DNA of 64,000 nucleotides from Candidatus Scalinduaceae bacterium (GCA_046759445.1 JBHICG010000008.1:15239-79238), one strand, 5' to 3'. Shown: positions 17,590 to 31,429, counted from the first letter of the stretch. The notes: a model not told the origin generated them from the letters alone. Made by a program: numbers and translations.

Positions 17590-17683
17590 CTTCTGACTTT
17601 TGCTTGCCCCGCACGAGCCTCCAATGCTTCCTTGCGGAAGCAAGGAATGGGGGCGATTTCACGGGGTCTTTTGTTTAAATATT

Positions 17684-18679
17684 ATGGCTGGAAAACTTGC
17701 CTACGAAAGATATTATTGGTTTCATAATCAGGTAAAGGACAACAAACATCCCAATTCAAGACATCTTGCCGATGAATTCGAAATCTCCCAAAAAACCGCT
17801 CAAAGAGACATAGAATTCATGAGGGATAGGATTGATGCACCACTTGAATATTCCCATGCTGATAGAGGCTATTATTATACTGATGAAGCCTATGAGTTAC
17901 CACCCATCTGGTTGCGTGAAAGTGAACTTGTCGCCTTTATCCTGGCCAAAAGGCTGGCCACAGCGATACCGGACAGAAGTATAAAAGATTCATTAAACAA
18001 ATTCATAAGTAAGTTTTCCTCACGAATTTCAGATAAAACTTGTGGTGAGCGGAGCGAATCCATAAGATTTTATCTGGATGATATTCAAGACAAGATATCT
18101 CTGAAAAACATAGAATATTATTCTGTCGATGAGGACTTATTTAGAAAGGTTGTGAATGCGCTTTTTACCAAAAGATCTTTAGCGATTCAATATTATTCTC
18201 CACATAAAGATGAAAGAACGAATAGAAATATAATTCCCCTTCATCTACTTGACTATATGGGCAACTGGCACCTGATATCATTTTGTACGCTAAAGAAAGG
18301 ACTCAGAAACTTTGCACTTTCAAGAATAGAAGAGTGTAATTATATTGACGAGGAAATATCACTTCCAACCGACCTGCCGCCAATAAAGACCTACATACGT
18401 AAAACTTTTGGAATATTCCACGGAGGACAAAACCATAATGTATCACTCAAATTCTCTCCCAGGGCATCCAGAGCTGTGAAAGAACAGATATGGCATAAAA
18501 AACAGAAGATAAAAGAACTTAAAGACGGATGCATTATACTAAATGTTCCGGTTGCGGATACTACTGAAATCAAAAGAGAAATCCTGAAATATGGCTCAGA
18601 AGTAGAGGTCCTTAAGCCTTTAAGATTAAAGAATGAGATAATTGAAGAGATAAAAAAAATGAAGAAAATTTATCAGTAG
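17684..18679 (+). CDS. WYL-domain HTH transcriptional regulator
   Basis: LADEFEISQKTAQRDIEFMR HTH, GNWHL...RNFALSRI WYL core; ATG 17684 (the longer ORF extension is repeat-derived). Confidence 0.92.
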   Translation: MAGKLAYERYYWFHNQVKDNKHPNSRHLADEFEISQKTAQRDIEFMRDRIDAPLEYSHADRGYYYTDEAYELPPIWLRESELVAFILAKRLATAIPDRSIKDSLNKFISKFSSRISDKTCGERSESIRFYLDDIQDKISLKNIEYYSVDEDLFRKVVNALFTKRSLAIQYYSPHKDERTNRNIIPLHLLDYMGNWHLISFCTLKKGLRNFALSRIEECNYIDEEISLPTDLPPIKTYIRKTFGIFHGGQNHNVSLKFSPRASRAVKEQIWHKKQKIKELKDGCIILNVPVADTTEIKREILKYGSEVEVLKPLRLKNEIIEEIKKMKKIYQ

Positions 18680-19345
18680 GACACTATTTGGGGGAGTAGG
18701 TATGGGATAAGAGTATTTAGTTTAAACAGTTTAAAACGTTCAAATCGCTTAAACAGTTTGAGCAGTTTGAACAATTTTAAAAAGGAGGGGGGGAAAGATG
18801 AGTGCAAGATATTTTGAAGATTTAGAAGTCTGGATACTCTCAAGAGAATTAACGAATAAAATCTACAATGTAAGCAATGACGGTAGATTCGCAAAAGATT
18901 TCGGACTCCGTGATCAGATAAGAAGAGCTGCTGTTTCCATTATGTCAAACATTGCAGAAGGATATGAAAGGGGCGGCAATCAGGAATTTATTCAGTTTTT
19001 GTCAATAGCCAAAGCCTCATGTGGAGAGGTGCGGTCACAGTTGTACGTCGCCATGGATCAAAGTTATGTTGGCAAAACAAAGTGTGAACAATTAATAGAC
19101 GAATTTAAGAAACTCTCCATCATGATTAACAACTTTATCGAATATCTAAAAGGTAGCAGATATAAAGGAATAAAGTATAAAAACAAAACGGTTTAAACCG
19201 CTTAAACCGTTTAAACGGCTCGAACGGTTCTTTAAGAGAATTGGGCAGAAACTATACTAAATATGTTTTGAGCAAAAAGAGTGTAAGTGTTTGTGATTAG
19301 TGAAAGAAATCCCCCATTTTCTTCACTTGCACATTCACTTACACA
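18650..19345 (+). repeat. direct duplication, copy 1 (WYL 3' end + four-helix-bundle module)
   Basis: Matches 20183-20920, starting at ATAAAAAAAATGAAGAAAATTTATCAGTAGGACAC. Confidence 0.9.
18798..19196 (+). CDS. four helix bundle protein (TIGR02436/IVP family), copy 1
   Basis: [24 protein letters not shown] and [16 protein letters not shown] motifs. Confidence 0.92.
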
Positions 19346-19459
19346 TTTTATATGAGCGAAAGCAGAGTTATTTAGACTTGTTATTAGCCTTGTGAATGGA
19401 TAACATAAACGGCTAAAGCTGAATTAATAGAGCAATGAGCTATAATAAGATTTAAGGAG

Positions 19460-19735
19460 GTGATTAATATGGTGATTATTGATAAGGAAAAAGTAAAAGA
19501 TATGTATTATGCCAATATGATGTGTGAGTATCACAAGGTAACGGAAAAGATCAGACTTTTCACAAGAAAATACTCGATGTCATTTGAACATTTTGAAAAG
19601 AACATAAAAGGATCTGAGAAAGAAGACTTTGAAAGGTGGGATGATTATATGGAATGGAAAGGGTATGAAAAAGTCTTACAGAATCTGATCAAAGAAAAGA
19701 AGGAGCTGGAAGTTGGAGATTATAAAGTGTCTTGA
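19460..19735 (+). CDS. putative antitoxin
   Basis: Small ORF overlapping the next gene; KYSMSFEHFE...WDDYMEWK pattern. Confidence 0.6.
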   Translation: MINMVIIDKEKVKDMYYANMMCEYHKVTEKIRLFTRKYSMSFEHFEKNIKGSEKEDFERWDDYMEWKGYEKVLQNLIKEKKELEVGDYKVS

Positions 19736-20048
19736 AAAAAGTAGTGCAGTCAAAGATTTTAAAATTCTAGTCCTTGAGTATTTTGAAGGCGGTTTCTACA
19801 TAAGAATTAAAGTCACATTGAATAACAATACTGAACTGTACATAAGGGAATACTCTGACGTTAATGTACGAAACTATTCATATCACTGGCAAGAACCAAA
19901 TCAGAAGTTATTGATCAGATGGGACAACTCAGCACATCACAAACATATTGAAACATATCCACATCATATTCATCATAGTAATAATGTCTTACCAAGTTAT
20001 CAAATCTCTTGCGAGGAAATATTAAAGATAATTGAAGAGAAAATCTGA
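19713..20048 (+). CDS. DUF6516-like putative toxin
   Basis: YSYHWQ..LIRWDNSAHH..TYPHHIH motif. Confidence 0.75.
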   Translation: MEIIKCLEKSSAVKDFKILVLEYFEGGFYIRIKVTLNNNTELYIREYSDVNVRNYSYHWQEPNQKLLIRWDNSAHHKHIETYPHHIHHSNNVLPSYQISCEEILKIIEEKI

Positions 20049-20182
20049 GCAAAAAGAAGTTGAATACTTTTACCGGAAACAATGGAGGTCACAAAAATGA
20101 TACAAGAATTTATGAATTATCTAAATAACTCCAAAACTCACAAATCCTCCATCTCTTTAACTCTAAAGCTGAAACAGACGAA

Positions 20183-20920
20183 ATAAAAAAAATGAAGAAA
20201 ATTTATCAGTAGGACACTATTTGGGGGAGTGGGTATGGGATAAAGTATTTCTGTTTAAACAGTTCAAACGGTTAAAACAGTTTAAACGGTTTTAACTTTT
20301 TTGTTAGTTAAACCGCTTGAACAGTTTGAACAATTATAAAAAGGAGGTGGGAAAGATGAGTGCAAGATATTTTGAAGATTTAGAAGTCTGGATACTCTCA
20401 AGAGAATTAACGAATAAAATCTACAATGTAAGCAATGACGGTAGATTCGCAAAAGATTTCGGACTCCGTGATCAGATAAGAAGAGCTGCTGTTTCCATTA
20501 TGTCAAACATTGCAGAAGGATATGAAAGGGGCGGCAATCAGGAATTTATTCAGTTTTTGTCAATAGCCAAAGCCTCATGTGGAGAGGTGCGGTCACAGTT
20601 GTACGTCGCCATGGATCAAAGTTATGTTGGCAAAACAAAGTGTGAACAATTAATAGACGAATTTAAGAAACTCTCCATCATGATTAACAACTTTATCGAA
20701 TATCTAAAAGGTAGCAGATATAAAGGAACAAAGTATAAAAAGTCAAAAAATAAAATGGTTTAAACGGTTTAAACCGCTTAAACCGTTTAAACGGCTCGAA
20801 CGGTTCTTTAAGAGAATTGGGCAGAAACTACACGGAAAATGTTTTGAGTAAAAAGAGTGTAAGTGTTTGTGATTAGTGAAAGAAATCCCCCATTTTCTTT
20901 ACTTCACTCACACTTACACT
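20183..20920 (+). repeat. direct duplication, copy 2
   Basis: Matches 18650-19345; coding part identical by eye, repeat arms diverged. Confidence 0.9.
20356..20763 (+). CDS. four helix bundle protein, copy 2
   Basis: Identical to 18798 except the last ~10 codons; RBS AAGGAGG before ATG 20356. Confidence 0.92.
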
Positions 20921-21281
20921 AATTTCTGATTTTTGCATGAAGAACTAGAGAAATTAAAGAGCCCCCTTTAAAAAGAGGGGATTTAGGGGTGTGTTCCGAT
21001 GAGAAAGAACTAAGGAGTGGCTGAAGATTGGACAAAAGAAGTTTTAATAGATTTAATTAAATAAGATGTGTATGTGCATTGTGAAAGTAAATTACTTACC
21101 TAGTATCTGACTTCTGTGTTCTGTTGTCTGTCTTTTGATCACTTACACTTGTTTTTATGATGTATGAACCCCCAATGCTTCCTTGCCAAAAGTAGGCTCT
21201 GTAAGAGCGGAAGCAAGGAATGGGGGTGGATTTTTCGGGAATATGTATAAAAACAAAACATAGTTTCATTGCTATAAATAA

Positions 21282-23588
21282 ATGTTAAAAGATATTAAAC
21301 AACTTACAGAATTATATTTGCATTCTAATGGTTTATTGCCAGAAGACAAATCATGGAGTGATTTTCACGACGAACTGGTTCAAAATGCATCCAAAGATGC
21401 TATTGGACTTCTTGCGGATGCTAACCCGAAAGATAAATGTAAGTATGCATTGTTTATTGATATAGATACTCAAAATAAAAATTGTAATGTCAAATATAAG
21501 GGCTTTGATAATTTTGTGGAAATCGAAAAAGTAGATGATTGGTCAAGTCATCTATTTTGGCAAGGGTCAGGTGGAGCTCAGAGCGACAAAATCAGGAACA
21601 CACCACATAAATTCTTCGATGTTAAAGGTAAATTTTCTTCAAATAAACTTTTTGAGCCATTACAAATGATATTAGATAATTACTGCCAAGTTCAAGAGGG
21701 TAAAGGCAAGAATAAAAAATATAAAGAAACTGGCCCACTGTTTTGGGATAAAGACAAAAACAATGAGAGTAAATTGCTTAAGAATATAGTGAATATTTTG
21801 AGCAAGAATAAAGATGAAGTGAATAAACTTGTAAAGGGTGACGAGAAAAGCAAACCAAAAATACTAGGTAAATTTCCTTCGTTGAAACAGGGCGAGTCTG
21901 TTTTTGTTGGTTTAACCATTGACGGAAAACCAATTGGAGAATATGAATTATTTAGACGATATTTGTTATTTGTAAGAATAAGGGTAGGCATTCAAAAAGG
22001 GGCAGATAAGTTTAAATATAAGTTTTTCCCAGAGGTAAGTAGAGAATTGGGTATATGCCCTTCATGTCATAGGAATAAGCCTCTTTTAGACCAGTGGCAG
22101 GGTACAGCCGAATTATCTTTTTACCAGACAACTAATGAGAATCACCTCTCATATGCGTTTCCTGAATCAGCTTTTACATTCTGTCAAAGCTGTGCAGATT
22201 TGCTATTCATTTTCAAACAGCATTTACTTGAAGTCTTAACTCGAAAGTTGGGTGGTAATCAGTGCCTTATCTTACCATCTATTAAACTGATTCCTTCAGA
22301 TCAGAATGAAAAGAGAAGGCTTCTTGAAAATTTAAAAGATTTATGGGATTTATCTAGTAGCGATATTCAATCTAAAGAAAAGAGATTGTTATATAGACTC
22401 GGACAATTGCCGTCATATGCTACCGTAACATTTATCTTCGGTGATTATATTACTGTTGGCAAATCTCAAAATGTGAGGAGGCTGGATGAGCTTAATATTA
22501 TCTTCCCTGATGTTCTACCAAGTAGGCTTTCACAAATAGCAGGTGCAATACAGGAAACTAACACATACTTAAGTGCGATGTGGTCTTTAACAAGCAGAGA
22601 TTGGAATTGTACATGGTATGTCAGGGATGATTTTCATTTGCTTCAAAATTTATTCCATCCATCATGGGATGAAGATAAAAAGAATAAAGACAGGAATAGA
22701 AAACAATATAAAAGTTTGAGACGGCCGGAAATAGAACGATATCTAAGATCAATCTTTTATGGACAAGAGATTTCATATTGTGAAATAGCAGATGATTGCT
22801 ATTCAAACCTTTTGTCAGCCTTCAAAATAAGCAGAAGTAGCAGTAAAGATGATAACAACAGATATACGTTATCTAATTACATAGGGGACGTTCTATCTTT
22901 AATGGTTTTTATTAGTGAATTGAAAGATTTAGATCCCAATAAGGAGGTAGAAGATATGACGGAAAATAAAGAATTTGAACTTACAGCTATGCCGGAGCTG
23001 GGTAAGTTTGTTGAGATGCATCCTTTATTTAAGGATAGTCAATATCTTGCACCGTTTTTTGTCGGCTGTTTGTTCTCGTATGCAGAAAACCTGCAGAAAG
23101 ATAATAGCAGGTTGGCAGCGTACAATTGGCTAGGGACAATGACCTTGACATATGATGATATTTTGCAAGATGTTTACCACAAGACTCTAAAATACATTAA
23201 AAGTAGACCCAAGAAAGAAAGTATCATATCAAGTCCACGTCTTCAAGAACTTATTAAAGCAATTGCTTATTATGATAAAGGACGATGTGATAATGATAGA
23301 GTTGCATTGACGGCTTTTTGTCATGGGTGGTCTGTTGGACGAAGTTTTATTATGAAAAAAAATATTGTTAAAGCGATCAAGAAGAAAATAAATGAACTTA
23401 AAATTCAAATGAACGATGAAATCAAGAAATTTTTGGAAGCGAATAAAGAAAAAATAAACGCCAATGACAGTCAAATATTGGATGATTTTTTGAAGCTTAT
23501 CCCTGAAACTCAACAGCCTGAAATATCATCAATCTGGCAAAAGTCTAAAGAAAATAAAATTGACGAAGGAGGAGAATACAATGAGTAA
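21282..23588 (+). CDS. cas8b: type I-B large subunit Cas8b (Csh1/TM1802-like)
   Basis: First gene before cas7/cas5/cas3; CPSC...CQSC zinc-finger motif; size. Confidence 0.8.
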   Translation: MLKDIKQLTELYLHSNGLLPEDKSWSDFHDELVQNASKDAIGLLADANPKDKCKYALFIDIDTQNKNCNVKYKGFDNFVEIEKVDDWSSHLFWQGSGGAQSDKIRNTPHKFFDVKGKFSSNKLFEPLQMILDNYCQVQEGKGKNKKYKETGPLFWDKDKNNESKLLKNIVNILSKNKDEVNKLVKGDEKSKPKILGKFPSLKQGESVFVGLTIDGKPIGEYELFRRYLLFVRIRVGIQKGADKFKYKFFPEVSRELGICPSCHRNKPLLDQWQGTAELSFYQTTNENHLSYAFPESAFTFCQSCADLLFIFKQHLLEVLTRKLGGNQCLILPSIKLIPSDQNEKRRLLENLKDLWDLSSSDIQSKEKRLLYRLGQLPSYATVTFIFGDYITVGKSQNVRRLDELNIIFPDVLPSRLSQIAGAIQETNTYLSAMWSLTSRDWNCTWYVRDDFHLLQNLFHPSWDEDKKNKDRNRKQYKSLRRPEIERYLRSIFYGQEISYCEIADDCYSNLLSAFKISRSSSKDDNNRYTLSNYIGDVLSLMVFISELKDLDPNKEVEDMTENKEFELTAMPELGKFVEMHPLFKDSQYLAPFFVGCLFSYAENLQKDNSRLAAYNWLGTMTLTYDDILQDVYHKTLKYIKSRPKKESIISSPRLQELIKAIAYYDKGRCDNDRVALTAFCHGWSVGRSFIMKKNIVKAIKKKINELKIQMNDEIKKFLEANKEKINANDSQILDDFLKLIPETQQPEISSIWQKSKENKIDEGGEYNE
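22956..23588 (+). CDS. cas11: putative Cas11 translated from an internal start in cas8b
   Basis: AAGGAGGT at 22941 followed by an in-frame ATG at 22956. Confidence 0.65.
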   Translation: MTENKEFELTAMPELGKFVEMHPLFKDSQYLAPFFVGCLFSYAENLQKDNSRLAAYNWLGTMTLTYDDILQDVYHKTLKYIKSRPKKESIISSPRLQELIKAIAYYDKGRCDNDRVALTAFCHGWSVGRSFIMKKNIVKAIKKKINELKIQMNDEIKKFLEANKEKINANDSQILDDFLKLIPETQQPEISSIWQKSKENKIDEGGEYNE

Positions 23589-29500: not shown

Positions 29501-29570
29501 GAGTGTAAGTGTATGTGGTCAGTGAAAGTAAATTACTTACAGCTTTCACCTACACTCTTCACTTACACTA
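29501..29570. repeat. empty 6-mer-arm hairpin module (AGTGTA)n/(TACACT)n
   Basis: GAGTGTAAGTGTATGTGGTCAGTGAAAGT-AAATT-ACTTACAGCTTTCACCTACACTCTTCACTTACACT. Confidence 0.75.
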
Positions 29571-29604
29571 TAAATCTAACATCTATATTCTATTTCTAAA
29601 AACC

Positions 29605-30576
29605 ATGCAACTCGTAATCAACACTTACGGTTCTTATCTTCGAAAGAAGGAAGGTTGCTTCCTTGTTAAAAATGAGGATGGTGAGTTCGACGTATCTGTA
29701 AAAAAGGTGGATAGTATTATGATTACGACAAGTTCTTATCTTTCCACTGACGCAATAAAGATGGCAATGGATAATAACATTGACGTTATCTTCCTTGATG
29801 ATTATGGAGACCCTTACGGCAGGGTGTGGCATTCAAAACTTGGAAGTACCGTTGCAATAAGACGCAAACAACTGGAAATGACATCTAACGAAAAAGGCCT
29901 GAATATGGCCAAGGAATGGATAATAGCAAAACTAGACAATCAGATTGAGTTCCTTACTAAACTAAAAAACTCAAGACCAGAAAAAGAGTCCAAATTAAAT
30001 GAATATAGTTCAAGACTGGGAGAAACAAAGGAAAAATTGGGAAAACTGACAGGTACAATTGATGAAAAAAGAAACACAATAATGGGACTCGAAGGTTCTG
30101 CAGGCAGGACTTATTTTGAAGCCATTAATTACGTCATGCCAGATAGATATAAATTCGATGGAAGAAGTAAGCAACCAGCAAAGGATGAATTTAATTGTCT
30201 CCTCAACTACGGATATGGTGTCCTTTATTCAATAGTTGAAAAGGCGTGCATTATAGCAGGACTCGATCCTTACGTTGGTTTCGTTCACACTGATAATTAT
30301 AATAAGAAATCACTCGTATTCGACCTGATAGAGATGTTTAGAATTTTTGTAGACCAGACGGTTGTCTATCTCTTCAGTCAAAGGCAAGTAAAACAGGAGT
30401 ATTTTGACAAAATAAAGAATGGATTGACTCTGAATAAAGAAGGAAAGGCTGTGCTGATAGAGGCGCTTAATAAGACCTTTGACAAGAGTGTCAGGTACAA
30501 GGGAAGAAATATAAAGAATAAAAATATAATTCAGTTTGAGTGCCATGCGATAGCGAATGGGATTATCAAGTGTTAG
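29605..30576 (+). CDS. cas1: Cas1
   Basis: MGLEGSAGRTYF, NCLLNYGYGVL, GLDPYVGFVH and SLVFDLIEMFR motifs; ATG 29605. Confidence 0.96.
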   Translation: MQLVINTYGSYLRKKEGCFLVKNEDGEFDVSVKKVDSIMITTSSYLSTDAIKMAMDNNIDVIFLDDYGDPYGRVWHSKLGSTVAIRRKQLEMTSNEKGLNMAKEWIIAKLDNQIEFLTKLKNSRPEKESKLNEYSSRLGETKEKLGKLTGTIDEKRNTIMGLEGSAGRTYFEAINYVMPDRYKFDGRSKQPAKDEFNCLLNYGYGVLYSIVEKACIIAGLDPYVGFVHTDNYNKKSLVFDLIEMFRIFVDQTVVYLFSQRQVKQEYFDKIKNGLTLNKEGKAVLIEALNKTFDKSVRYKGRNIKNKNIIQFECHAIANGIIKC

Positions 30577-30659
30577 TATAAGTAAATGGTGTAAGTGATA
30601 GGTGAAAGTGTAAGTGAATCGTATCGTTTAAGTGTATAGTGATAAGAAGGGAGATAGAG

Positions 30660-31031
30660 ATGAATGTTGATATCAAAAGTGTTGAGGATCTGGATGTTTT
30701 CAAAATGGCTCATGAACTGGTATTGAAAATATATAAGATTACAAAAAAGTTTCCTGACGAAGAGAAGTTTGGTTTAGTTTCACAAATGAGAAGAGCTGTA
30801 TCATCAGTACCCATGAATTTAATGGAAGGTGGACACCGTCTTTCTTCAAAAGAGTACCGTCAATTTGCAGGCATAGCGAACGGTTCTATAGGTGAATTTA
30901 AATATCATATACTTTTATCTAAAGACCTCAAATATCTATCAAACGATATTTACCATGAATTAAGAAATACAGCAGAAGAAATTAGCAAGATGTTAATGGG
31001 ATTAATAAAATCCCTTTCAAAGAAGCAGTAA
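30660..31031 (+). CDS. four helix bundle protein between cas1 and cas2
   Basis: EDLDVF, FPDEEKFGLVSQMRRAVSSVPMNLMEG motifs; enclosed by inverted 6-mer repeat arms. Confidence 0.9.
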   Translation: MNVDIKSVEDLDVFKMAHELVLKIYKITKKFPDEEKFGLVSQMRRAVSSVPMNLMEGGHRLSSKEYRQFAGIANGSIGEFKYHILLSKDLKYLSNDIYHELRNTAEEISKMLMGLIKSLSKKQ

Positions 31032-31135
31032 ATTTCGTTTTTTAGAAATGAAAGAATTTCTGTCTATAGAATTTAACTATAACCTAAAGGCATATTCACC
31101 AATACTTACACTTACACCGAACACATACACTATAA

Positions 31136-31427
<292 letters not shown>

Positions 31428-31429
<2 letters not shown>

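Follow-up and report, generated by a model that had tools for sequence, protein, structure and literature searches.

Identical coding cores between diverged flanks in two copies of an IVS-like cassette around a TumE-type toxin-antitoxin pair upstream of cas8b in a Candidatus Scalinduaceae bacterium

Introduction

The intervening sequences (IVS) of 23S rRNA that contain an ORF, for which Ralph & McClelland 1993 is said to be a source, offer a natural starting point for the locus described here. Such IVS, present in Leptospira as well as in Coxiella, are excised by RNase III. In Coxiella burnetii, the helix-45 IVS of the 23S rRNA carries an S23p ORF, and the heptamer repeats upstream of this ORF vary among strains, the IVS being otherwise conserved (passage on this element in PMC4990558). 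GxxRxxxSxxxNxxE is a conserved motif of the PF05635 / 23S rRNA IVS protein family, and 18 23S_rRNA_IVP genes were reported in cas loci, including those of type I-B, together with toxin-antitoxin (TA) genes (Zhang, Doak & Ye, 2013; passage on these genes in PMC3936711). PF05635 has also been described as resembling Avd, the accessory protein of diversity-generating retroelements (DGRs) (passage in PMC10053308), and TumE-TumA as a TA superfamily (Durairaj et al., 2023; passage in PMC10584680).

Here, we describe a locus in a 64,000-nt stretch of DNA (the window, from whose first letter all positions are counted) of a Candidatus Scalinduaceae bacterium (GCA_046759445.1 JBHICG010000008.1:15239-79238), in which a gene of the PF05635 / S23p protein family, a family marked by a four-helix-bundle fold and a pentameric ring (hence the 4HB gene), occurs twice. 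As in 23S rRNA IVS, complementary or hairpin-forming DNA lies on both sides of the ORF, and as in the Coxiella IVS, where their number is strain-variable, short tandem repeats lie just 5' of the start codon. Unlike the IVS, which lie in helix 25 or 45 of 23S rRNA, the element is found between a WYL regulator gene and cas8b; its quasi-palindromic 9-mers are predicted to fold as local hairpins on each side and not as a single long terminal stem, it has a strong Shine-Dalgarno sequence, and it is present twice, around a TA cassette. The two copies upstream of cas8b, and a third in the same genome between cas1- and cas2-like ORFs, recall the cas-locus genes of Zhang, Doak & Ye (2013); the repeat arms, the duplication and the presence or absence of the cassette described here go beyond the passage of PMC3936711 on those genes. 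The homologous four-helix-bundle family and the variable DNA next to the gene also bring DGRs to mind. However, the differences between the arms are unit indels and mixed substitutions, there is no template/variable repeat pair here, and the 97%-complete assembly had no match to a reverse transcriptase (RVT_1), on which ground DGR-like rewriting via an Avd-like protein was rejected. The locus is in effect a natural two-copy experiment on the evolution of 4HB (23S-IVS-type) cassettes; it overturns no known mechanism, and its value is that of a well-anchored example and a caution.

Organization of the locus

All features are on the + strand. The WYL/WCX-domain regulator gene (17600..18679, taken as the longest ORF, with homology to relatives from ~17677) matches PF13280 WYL (E 2e-16) and PF25583 WCX (E 5e-17), and its DNA is 81-85% identical in the genomes G001, G006, G016 and G020. 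Its last 30 nt, together with a 25-nt post-stop stretch that is kept in all relatives, make up segment A1 (18650..18704), the left end of copy 1. Next comes the first 4HB cassette (18705..19275), consisting of arms, ORF and tail. This cassette is a discrete unit that is present or absent at one site: three relatives have empty sites with 18 nt in its place, and a low-depth empty-site contig was found in one metagenome sample (X2, see below). The upstream arm U1 (18720..18785) contains ~6 units of a GTTTAAAC-type 9-mer and folds into a 22-pair hairpin (MFE -16.3, z -3.25) that ends immediately 5' of the Shine-Dalgarno sequence. The 4HB gene of copy 1 (18798..19196) encodes 132 aa and scores 119 bits against TIGR02436 (cut-off 24); both 4HB copies match PF05635 at E 7e-36 and 123 bits (cut-off 33.8), and the translation, inspected by eye, contains the RxxxSxxxNxxE part of the family motif. 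The downstream arm D1 (19183..19250) has 4 nine-mer units, the first of which includes the stop codon; these units form an 11-bp hairpin and are followed by a small second hairpin. The non-repeat segment F (19255..19273) leads to the ORF-less hairpin LR1 (19276..19345; MFE -28.7, z -7.2), made up of a GTGTAAGTG-type left arm, a loop and a right arm that we call type I; in the empty-site relatives, the LR hairpin lies directly 3' of the WYL stop codon.

The TA cassette (19354..20061) contains a leader, a small ORF (19469-19735) and a TumE toxin ORF (19713-20048). It is separated by a 121-nt filler (20062..20182) from segment A2 (20183..20237), in which the final 30 nt of WYL and the 25-nt post-stop stretch recur as an orphan; A2 forms the left end of copy 2. 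The filler gave no DNA match in the genome itself or in any fetched locus, and a derivation from a decayed WYL C-terminus was rejected, as it has no WYL similarity and its translated scores lie within those of shuffles. The upstream arm of copy 2, U2 (20253..20335), has 9-10 units and a 31-pair hairpin (MFE -24.0, z -1.96), and includes an insertion of 26 nt, palindromic and with a T-rich loop, which resembles turns in the arms of relatives. The second 4HB gene (20356..20763; 135 aa) starts at an ATG homologous to the start of copy 1, its downstream arm D2 (20750..20826) has 5 units in a 15-bp hairpin, the same unit count as in G001, and the hairpin LR2 (20852..20920) combines the left arm and loop of LR1 with a type II right arm. 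A cas8b-like gene of the TM1802 family (21282..23588), followed by cas7, begins the type I-B cas operon; this region matches the profiles PF09484 (E 2e-27) and PF05107 (E 2e-50).

The 4HB locus thus lies between protein-coding genes, and Rfam found no rRNA in it; in the scan of this locus and three related loci, the only Rfam match was a tRNA in locus L016, with none for arms or hairpins, and a scan for promoter and terminator consensus sequences gave nothing usable. The hairpins may function at the RNA level; they fold about equally well on both strands and as DNA, and their G-U pairs are uninformative as to RNA or DNA or strand. When whole cassettes are folded, a local hairpin forms on each side, the 9-mer unit being self-complementary. 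We also weighed whether the hairpins could be attC sites like those of integrons and set this reading aside; the ends of the TA cassette are ragged between genomes. Other 4HB paralogs in the genome have inverted arms that by eye are non-palindromic.

Identity and divergence between the two copies

The initial annotation had proposed a recent duplication around the TA pair, in which the gene is identical and the repeat arms have been rewritten. Pairwise alignment and an exact-block search bear out the duplication itself: the segments 18650-19345 and 20183-20920 repeat each other in direct orientation at a distance of 1.5 kb, each consisting of the 30 nt that end the WYL gene, the 4HB gene with its 9-mer hairpin arms, and the second hairpin, and they do bracket the small ORF and the TumE gene. 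The copies share four exact blocks, namely 48 nt running from the final 9 codons of WYL through its stop to 18 nt past it (18650-18697 = 20183-20230), 380 nt comprising a 7-nt leader and 373 nt of coding sequence (18791-19170 = 20349-20728), in agreement with the ~370 nt of identical coding sequence noticed by eye, 69 nt in the downstream 9-mer arm (19186-19254 = 20762-20830), and 50 nt covering the left arm and loop of the second hairpin (19274-19323 = 20850-20899). Over the homologous span, 694 ungapped columns contain 31 mismatches, with 5 gap events of 26, 1, 18, 1 and 2 columns, and every one of these mismatches and indels falls in the 314 columns outside the 380-nt core. When the 36 difference events were placed at random, a clean run of at least 380 nt arose in 0 of 200,000 placements. 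The identity tract is therefore bounded by diverged flanks to a degree beyond chance.

The flanks differ in several ways. Mismatches between the copies number 8/138 and 11/174 on the two sides (~6%), in addition to 31 and 19 gap columns. The upstream arms differ as had been noted, with ~6 units against 9-10 (initially counted as ~9), the 26-nt insertion and base changes, and a hairpin is nevertheless kept in both. The 3' ends of the 4HB genes also differ, through a single Ile/Thr replacement and an in-frame insertion of 9 nt, as do the right arms of the terminal hairpins, type I versus type II. By contrast, the downstream 9-mer arm has not been rewritten, as its 69 nt are identical and copy 2 merely has one unit more, and the non-repeat segment F differs at 5 of its 19 sites. 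On the right, the repeat ends precisely where the left arm and loop common to both copies end (19323/20899), the right arms beyond being different, and the left boundary is sharp, inside the WYL gene, with unrelated DNA upstream.

Several of these differences can be placed among relatives. The right arm of LR1 groups with those of G006, G020 and metagenome locus L024 (alignment scores of 20-26, versus 13 to copy 2), and that of LR2 is nearest to G001, an affinity that is weak (16 versus 13). As they match types in different relatives, both right arms appear to be pre-existing variants and not products of rewriting in this genome. The post-stop stretch has a single A/G difference, which divides the relatives in the same way, and at all 5 differing sites of segment F copy 1 has the letters of L024. 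Polarized with G001 and L024, most of the derived changes belong to copy 2, namely the insertion in U2, the 9-nt insertion at the 3' end of the gene and the cluster in its segment F (F2), with the change from Thr to Ile and the loss of one downstream unit being derived in copy 1. We found no genome with these special features of copy 2 in single copy, and no ectopic donor for the copy-specific patches in the genome itself, where blastn-short returned only the two copies and 12-mer matches were scattered at chance level. That U2 arose from copy 1 in a few steps of slippage or template switching was rejected, since greedy tiling on both strands required 17 pieces for 117 nt; U1, the 3' end of copy 2 and F2 were likewise rejected as such products of the other copy (14, 7 and 6 short pieces, respectively).

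Calibration with relatives

Comparison with orthologous loci in other genera suggests that the duplication is less recent than initially proposed. Flank mismatches of copy 1 amount to 16/127 and 22/163 versus G001 and 21/138 and 17/174 versus L024, that is, 10-15%, and the divergence between the flanks of the two copies is about half of this. The copy 1 gene and its orthologs differ at 40/375 (G001) and 46/375 (L024) sites, or 11-12%, and in the first 124 codons third positions differ at 28/124 and 32/124 sites (23-26%). Proportional scaling would predict ~10 or more synonymous differences between the cores of the two copies, and none is seen. Between genomes, the flanks, including the arms, have fewer mismatches than the third positions of the ORF, which argues against substitution hypermutation of the arms.

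Within the wider family, nine pairs of metagenome loci have identical genes, and in all eight that are informative on both flanks the flanks are at least 99% identical without indels. A different pattern is found in L065/L085, where the arms differ by ~11% plus unit indels and the ORF at 5/384 sites (4/128 third positions), the arms in this pair also differing more than the neighboring DNA. The 4HB ORF and its arms can also have different histories: L051 and L054 are 100% identical from the upstream arm to ~230 nt into the ORF and ~80% identical in the remainder, and L037 has a gene 77% identical to those of L045-47 next to downstream DNA that is 98% identical. These are recombination mosaics within the 4HB cassette family. 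Of the fast arm turnover put forward initially, the part that stands is that unit-scale change is real and that the differences are not uniform along the repeat; it is a trait of the 4HB/IVS family already published for Coxiella (passage in PMC4990558). The idea of arms that quickly outrun the gene fares less well against the eight identical-gene pairs and against the arms in independent contigs considered next.

Evidence from independent contigs

The genome was assembled from short metagenome reads into 145 contigs, with 97% completeness, and we compared it with contigs from two samples of one study, X1 and X2, either of which may be the source sample. Contigs in each sample carry arm 1 (18668-18820), arm 2 (20201-20378) and a 919-nt piece from hairpin 1 through the TA pair to the WYL remnant (19294-20212), all with 0 differences, and it follows from these error-free contigs that both copies and both junctions exist. 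The 380-nt core, which is longer than the read length, is present only once in the contigs, and its perfect identity in the two copies rests on the short-read assembly, which may have smoothed over a few differences. The X2 gene contig has three clustered synonymous changes (18929, 18932 and 18938) to the G001 state, one contig of a third sample, X3, has the same changes at two of these sites, and the X3 contigs break at the cluster. At the time scale of X1 and X2, it thus appears to be the core, not the arms, that varies; the three-site cluster of X2 and X3 may also mark a difference between the two copies that assembly has concealed.

Contig assemblers smooth small bubbles, and such smoothing is visible in segment F, where an X1 contig has the copy 1 letters and an X2 contig those of copy 2. 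In X1, the collapsed gene contig has a depth of 25.6, versus 16.8-20.6 for four flanking single-copy contigs, or ~1.4x, where ~1.8x would be expected if the assembly were exact; contig depth is a poor measure of copy number, and this ratio is ambiguous. X3 has only parts of the locus at depths of 2.5-3.4 and X4 a divergent TA relative, with 41 differences over 535 nt, and low-complexity matches; both are uninformative on the arms of this locus. Overall, the locus is a caution on reading repeat identity from short-read metagenome assemblies.

Origin of the two copies

Our preferred explanation, which we hold with moderate confidence, is that two older or allelic copies of the cassette flank a mobile TA cassette and that gene conversion homogenized their coding core. 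The spacer between the WYL-type regulator gene and cas8b would be a docking area for small cassettes. One of these, the IVS-like 4HB cassette (a 9-mer-unit hairpin, Shine-Dalgarno sequence, PF05635 ORF and second 9-mer hairpin), would have lodged between the WYL stop codon and the ORF-less LR hairpin, and another, the mobile TumE/TumA-type TA cassette, would dock just after that hairpin. The TA cassette would thereby have come to be flanked by two copies of the unit made of WYL tail, 4HB cassette and left half of LR, which are probably older or allelic versions and not fresh twins, joined through TA-linked recombination (Campbell-type or homology-anchored illegitimate) or by duplication long ago. 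The 380-nt core would afterwards have been homogenized by RecA-type conversion acting on the direct repeats, the tract halting on one side where the upstream arm is rich in indels and on the other at the indel of the 3' end, and the arm differences would reflect ordinary hairpin-preserving gain and loss of units and base changes over a longer time. Copy 2, whose right arm has a weak affinity to G001, may come from a separate lineage.

Concerted evolution by gene conversion is well known for tufA/tufB in Salmonella and for rRNA operons. As in tufA/tufB, the coding cores here are identical including synonymous sites, the flanks have diverged, and the tract ends where homology fails; unlike tufA/tufB, the direct repeats are very short and only 1.5 kb apart, and the alternative crossover would lose the TA cassette. 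The identical gene is better explained by such conversion than by arms racing ahead of it, and an identical gene with different arms need not imply hypermutable arms.

We consider it unlikely that a recent in situ duplication was followed by very fast change of the hairpin arms through slippage, conversion or templated resynthesis, with the gene unchanged. The differences are indeed concentrated in or beside hairpins, yet non-repeat segment F has changed as well and the downstream arm is the same bar one unit. U1 and U2 both fold well despite their differences (22 and 31 pairs), and the U2 insertion is palindromic with a T-rich loop as in arms of relatives; U2 nevertheless cannot be tiled from copy 1, and the two right-arm types already exist in different relatives. 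Arms have outpaced the ORF in L065/L085, and heptamer number varies among Coxiella strains (passage in PMC4990558), whereas X1 and X2 have identical arms, the arms are at least 99% identical in 8/8 informative identical-gene pairs, flank mismatches of 10-15% against 23-26% at third positions speak against substitution hypermutation, and templated rewriting would have to do without a reverse transcriptase in the assembly. Quite improbable, too, is that copy 2 arose by one-step error-prone copying and was born with altered arms and clustered errors. A break to the left of a pre-existing second LR, as in G001, would have led to invasion of the first LR left arm, leftward copying through the cassette into the WYL tail, with slips and switches in hairpin DNA, and illegitimate joining. 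Such a route would account for the right boundary exactly after the shared left arm and loop, for the sharp left boundary inside the WYL gene with unrelated DNA upstream, and for most of the derived clustered changes being in copy 2, and G001 has a module between two left-arm copies with no second cassette. However, copy 1 also has derived changes (Thr to Ile, loss of a downstream unit), U2 is no mosaic of copy 1 pieces and has many base substitutions for a single event, and repair synthesis of this kind is without direct evidence.

We judge it very improbable that the pattern is an assembly artifact, the identity coming from bubble smoothing or repeat threading, or from one chromosomal copy plus a ~1.5-kb circle or a second strain. 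Such an artifact would suit a 145-contig short-read metagenome assembly with a core longer than the reads, the single occurrence of the core in contigs, the depth of ~1.4x in place of 1.8x, the breaks of X3 contigs at the three-site cluster, and the blindness of a k-mer graph to an integrated form versus chromosome plus circle. Against this, the junctions from hairpin 1 through TA, filler and WYL remnant to arm 2, and from WYL to arm 1, are on error-free contigs in two samples, which, barring a circular form, places the core on both sides of the TA pair in a single molecule; TA and WYL depths in X1 are similar (19.5 and 20.6), and as X1 has no second core contig, any hidden core differences would be few.

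Beyond the preferred explanation of conversion between older copies, we raise a broader model that is itself rather unlikely. The ORF core and the arms would be separate recombining modules, with heterogeneous arms bounding the tracts; cores and ORF-less hairpins would provide portable homology for the integrase-free capture, duplication and exchange of TumE/TumA-like cassettes at cas loci, and the TA cassette would guard the duplication from collapse.

The TumE-type toxin-antitoxin cassette

The predicted toxin ORF scores over the Pfam cut-off for TumE (PF20126, E 2e-21, 76 bits; cut-off 23.4), and a small ORF upstream, a putative TumA-like antitoxin, overlaps it by 23 nt, an arrangement also seen in type II TA pairs. 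The toxin ORF falls under the cut-off of the NCBIfam equivalog NF045777 (44.3 versus 90 bits), and the small ORF has no Pfam or NCBIfam match; an upstream ORF of 88-91 aa is kept alongside the TumE-type ORF in 5 other genomes. The TA cassette is horizontally mobile between genera: five genomes from other genera carry it with 87-90% identity across 687-706 nt, in comparison with 81-85% for the WYL gene. Recombination between the 380-nt identical direct repeats could delete the TA pair, as was initially suggested, and the resulting allele would carry no unique junction.

In G001, a different two-ORF module, both ORFs of which are without Pfam matches, lies between 29-nt copies of the LR left arm. 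TumE-type TA cassettes between host-derived direct repeats are found in three genomes, which is a possible clue to how they spread or persist beside CRISPR-Cas operons: in addition to the present genome, the cassette is flanked by repeats of 168 nt in G017 and, in G021, by repeats of 34 + 27 nt and then a 4HB ortholog downstream of it.

Architecture of the WYL-cas8b Spacer

The window belongs to a 3.62-Mb assembly (145 contigs, 37% G+C) and contains a spacer bordered on the left by a WYL/WCX-domain regulator gene (17600-18679) and on the right by cas8b/cas7 of a type I-B cas operon (21282 onward). After the WYL stop codon come 25 nt conserved throughout the relatives and an array of GTTTAAAC-type 9-mers, the upstream arm. 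A strong Shine-Dalgarno sequence then precedes copy 1 of a four-helix-bundle (4HB) gene (18798-19196; 132 aa, PF05635/TIGR02436), whose stop codon lies inside a downstream 9-mer array. About 45 nt of unique DNA separate this array from a hairpin of 70 nt (LR1), whose arms are of GTGTAAGTG type. Beyond it lie a toxin-antitoxin (TA) cassette comprising a short ORF (19469-19735) and the gene for a TumE toxin (19713-20048), a 121-nt filler segment that matches nothing else in this genome or in the loci compared, and the orphan last 30 nt of WYL, which precede a second full series with a 4HB ORF at 20356-20763 and a hairpin (LR2) ending at about 20920. Within this genome, the GTTTAAAC arms are confined to copies 1 and 2.

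The alignment of the two copies extends from 18650/20183 to about 19345/20920, with 31 mismatches and five gap events in 694 ungapped columns and exact common blocks of 48, 380, 69, and 50 nt. The 380-nt block (18791-19170, equal to 20349-20728; hereafter the core) contains 373 coding nucleotides, and none of 200,000 random placements of the 36 difference events left a clean run of 380. The initial annotation had described a recent duplication with an identical coding sequence, synonymous sites included, between altered repeat arms, and the assembly alignment agrees with much of this description. The upstream arms differ in sequence and in unit number (about 6 in copy 1 vs. 9-10 in copy 2, which carries a 26-nt insertion), one Ile/Thr replacement and an in-frame insertion of 9 nt separate the gene ends, and the right arms of the terminal hairpins (R1 and R2) are unlike. 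The downstream 9-mer arm, by contrast, is essentially unchanged (69 identical nt), with one extra unit in copy 2.

Support from Independent Contigs

Logan contigs served as independent sequence data, in which X1 and X2, two samples of one study, contain 0.88 and 0.87 of the sampled words, respectively; either may be the source sample. Arm 1 (18668-18820) and arm 2 (20201-20378) each lie on one contig in X1 and one in X2, with 0 differences, and a 919-nt contig (19294-20212; 0 differences in both samples) spans the right arm of hairpin 1, the TA cassette, the filler, and the WYL remnant. These contigs place a copy of the core on either side of the TA cassette, and the duplication is real, as originally proposed.

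The core occurs once among the contigs, matching the expectation for a collapsed repeat. In X1, its contig has a depth of 25.6, compared with 16.8-20.6 for four flanking contigs, a ratio of about 1.4 vs. the 1.81 expected if the assembly were exact (391 of the 485 31-mers of the core contig being two-copy). Bubble smoothing in the contigs clearly occurred. A 19-nt segment of unique DNA between the downstream arm and LR1 (segment F, 19255-19273) has copy 1 letters in the X1 contig and those of copy 2, combined with a 3' end of copy 1 type, in the X2 contig. Three synonymous differences lie close together in the X2 gene contig (18929 T>A, 18932 T>C, 18938 C>A), and contigs of a third run (X3) end at this cluster with both states present. 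The perfect identity of the core and the pairing of arms with 3' ends are as assembled and provisional at the contig level. In X1, the WYL, arm 1, TA, and arm 2 contigs all have depths of 16.8-20.6; in X2, the TA and arm 2 contigs reach 15.3-15.9 and those of WYL and arm 1 only 10.9-11.7, an unevenness over 18500-20400 that possibly reflects a strain mixture or extra copies.

Cassette Presence and Absence in Relatives

We searched 41 genomes, counting the one studied here, and compared the loci fetched. In G001, of the same genus, WYL is followed by a single 4HB cassette and an LR hairpin; the 4HB gene is identical to copy 1 at 335/375 positions, and the arms have the same unit type in a different number and order. 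Past the hairpin, a different two-ORF module has a 29-nt direct copy of the LR left arm on each side. This module (L013 568-1442, minus strand) takes the place of the TumE cassette, and its overlapping ORFs (96 and 195 aa) are without a Pfam match; a GS...DxD pattern in the larger one is, on visual inspection, reminiscent of minimal nucleotidyltransferases. The site is empty in three genomes belonging to another genus (G006, G020, and that of L107), in which WYL, the 25-nt stretch, and 18 nt lead directly to the LR hairpin, a junction also present on one low-depth X2 contig. The metagenome locus L024 is G006-like except for a filled site, with a 4HB gene identical to copy 1 at 329/375 positions. 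Filled and empty sites thus define the 4HB cassette (18705-19275) as a discrete present/absent unit that sits between the WYL stop codon and a hairpin adjoining WYL wherever the cassette is absent.

The genome has 11 PF05635 genes, at least 8 of which by eye have paralog-specific short-unit repeats upstream and their complement downstream. A third such gene in the window (30660-31031), between cas1-like (29509-30576) and cas2-like (31139-31429) ORFs, has arms of GTGTAAGTG / CACTTACAC units (region 30560-31140). Since the LR hairpins share this unit family, the ORF-less hairpins after copies 1 and 2 may be an empty arm pair. In G016 (L016), a GTTTAAAC-type upstream arm lies 3' of WYL, ~150 nt past its stop, followed by a GC-rich structured element bounded by a 16-nt inverted repeat, where the 4HB gene would stand, with a tRNA and a cas3-like HD gene beyond.

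The TA cassette (about 19354-20061) is present in five genomes of other genera at 87-90% identity over 687-706 nt, is better conserved than the WYL gene (81-85%), and has unrelated flanks there; it therefore moves horizontally. In G017, it lies between host-derived direct repeats (168 nt, 96%), and in G021 between 34- and 27-nt direct repeats of the upstream gene's end, with a 4HB ortholog next. The G017 repeats (L017 1154-1321 and 2197-2364) are a GC-rich element resembling that of G016; neither element has an Rfam match.

Age of the Copies and Turnover of the Arms

Several lines of sequence comparison speak against a fresh duplication. Their flanks differ at 8/138 and 11/174 positions, with 31 and 19 gap columns, roughly half the divergence of copy 1 from G001 (16/127 and 22/163) and L024 (21/138 and 17/174). 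The genes of these two loci differ from copy 1 at 11-12% of sites and 23-26% of third positions; scaling in proportion, one would expect roughly ten synonymous differences in the core, and 0 are observed. Segment F differs between the copies at 5 of 19 positions, at all five of which copy 1 matches L024. R1 is of a type shared with G006, G020, and L024 (alignment scores 20-26, vs. 13 to R2), R2 is nearest, weakly, to G001 (score 16), and a single A/G difference in the post-stop stretch groups likewise; by these alignments, R1 and R2 are not rewritten forms of each other and would represent pre-existing types. Templated or slippage rewriting, as initially suggested, also fits poorly with the upstream arm of copy 2, as building it from copy 1 needs 17 pieces for 117 nt, so that it is not derivable by a few slippage or strand-switch steps, and a genome-wide search found no other donor in this genome.

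The proposal that arms change faster than adjacent DNA holds in part. Nine pairs among 80 related metagenome loci share an identical gene, and in all eight informative for both flanks, which may be one strain sampled twice, the flanks are at least 99% identical without indels, so that arm turnover is not apparent where the gene has not diverged. Between X1 and X2, both upstream arms are identical and the gene contig differs. Unit-scale indels occur in many pairs at 1-4% gene divergence, and L065/L085 demonstrate that faster arm change does occur, with arms about 11% mismatched, 5/384 differences in the gene (4/128 at third positions), and almost none in neighbouring DNA. In Coxiella, as published, the number of GACAGAT heptamers 5' of the S23p start varies among strains and the rest of the IVS is conserved (PMC4990558). 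In the opposite sense, two comparisons are plain recombination mosaics: L051/L054 are 100% identical over the upstream arm and first ~230 nt of the ORF and about 80% in the remainder, and L037 has a gene 77% identical to those of L045-47 and downstream DNA 98% identical. ORF and flanks, therefore, often have different histories.

Proposed Origin and Alternatives

Most likely, two older or allelic cassette copies stand on either side of a mobile TA cassette, with the core homogenised by gene conversion. That the arms simply changed quickly around an unchanged gene seems doubtful for this pair, even though arm turnover is real in the 4HB family. One-step error-prone copying anchored at the second LR left arm, an anchor suggested by the G001 layout, would account for the exact right boundary of the repeat and for the clustering of derived changes in copy 2, and we regard it as quite improbable. 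An assembly artefact, whether through smoothing of differences in the core or through a 1.5-kb circle beside the chromosome, is likewise improbable, with bubble smoothing on its side and the arm and TA-spanning contigs against it. DGR-like rewriting by an Avd-like protein, a homology of PF05635 that is on record (PMC10053308), is unlikely, as no reverse transcriptase was found in the assembly and the changes between copies are not of DGR type.

Under gene conversion between older copies, recombination accompanying arrival of the TA cassette, Campbell-type or anchored in homology of the conserved WYL tail, 4HB core, or LR hairpin, would have placed the copies; alternatively, they could stem from an old duplication. 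A conversion tract would then have homogenised the coding core and ended at the limits of homology, namely the indel-rich upstream arm and the 3'-end indel. At the three-site synonymous cluster, X2 has the G001 state, and X2 and X3 are set apart from X1; either the cluster records a transfer of this kind, between copies or between alleles, or it is a copy-specific difference that the assembly smoothed out. The TA pair could be lost by recombination of the two 380-nt repeats, which would leave a hybrid of upstream arm 1, core, and downstream arm 2, an allele with no unique junction and hence invisible in contigs. Toxin-antitoxin addiction would select against such deletion and may thereby explain the persistence of the duplication. 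Folding of the hairpins is equally good for RNA of either strand and for DNA; taking IVS elements as a model, we assume that they act at the RNA level, in processing or stability of a co-transcribed cassette.

The 4HB protein is clearly a PF05635/TIGR02436 member, and the cassette may work like a 23S rRNA intervening sequence (IVS); its location differs, so it is not an IVS. Genes for 23S_rRNA_IVP and TA genes were listed at cas loci in a 2013 catalogue (PMC3936711), and the definition of TumE-TumA dates from 2023 (PMC10584680). In the available portions of the literature, we found no account of duplicated 4HB cassettes or their arms outside rRNA. The feature can be described as a routine mix of segmental repeat, mobile TA cassette, probable gene conversion, and repeat-unit indels; the interest lies in a still unexplained 4HB cassette family acted on by known processes.

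Other Repeats in the Spacer

A REP-like hairpin repeat of ~59 nt (21169-21227; partial copy 17615-17653) recurs at ten or more other sites in this genome and in many copies in the same-genus G001 and G002 (87-100% identity), and was not found in the other genera searched. A ~38-nt element (20957-20995), a C-run/G-run hairpin followed by GGGGTGTG, has 89-94% matches in many genomes of several families (G005, G009, G026, G030, G035, G037, and others) and is a widespread small repeat. Between LR2 and the REP-like element, further arm-like fragments lie at 21060-21165, one a stretch of GTGTATGTG type and the other a run of CTGTC units mirrored in G001 by GACAG units at the corresponding position; these fragments suggest remains of other cassettes in the spacer.
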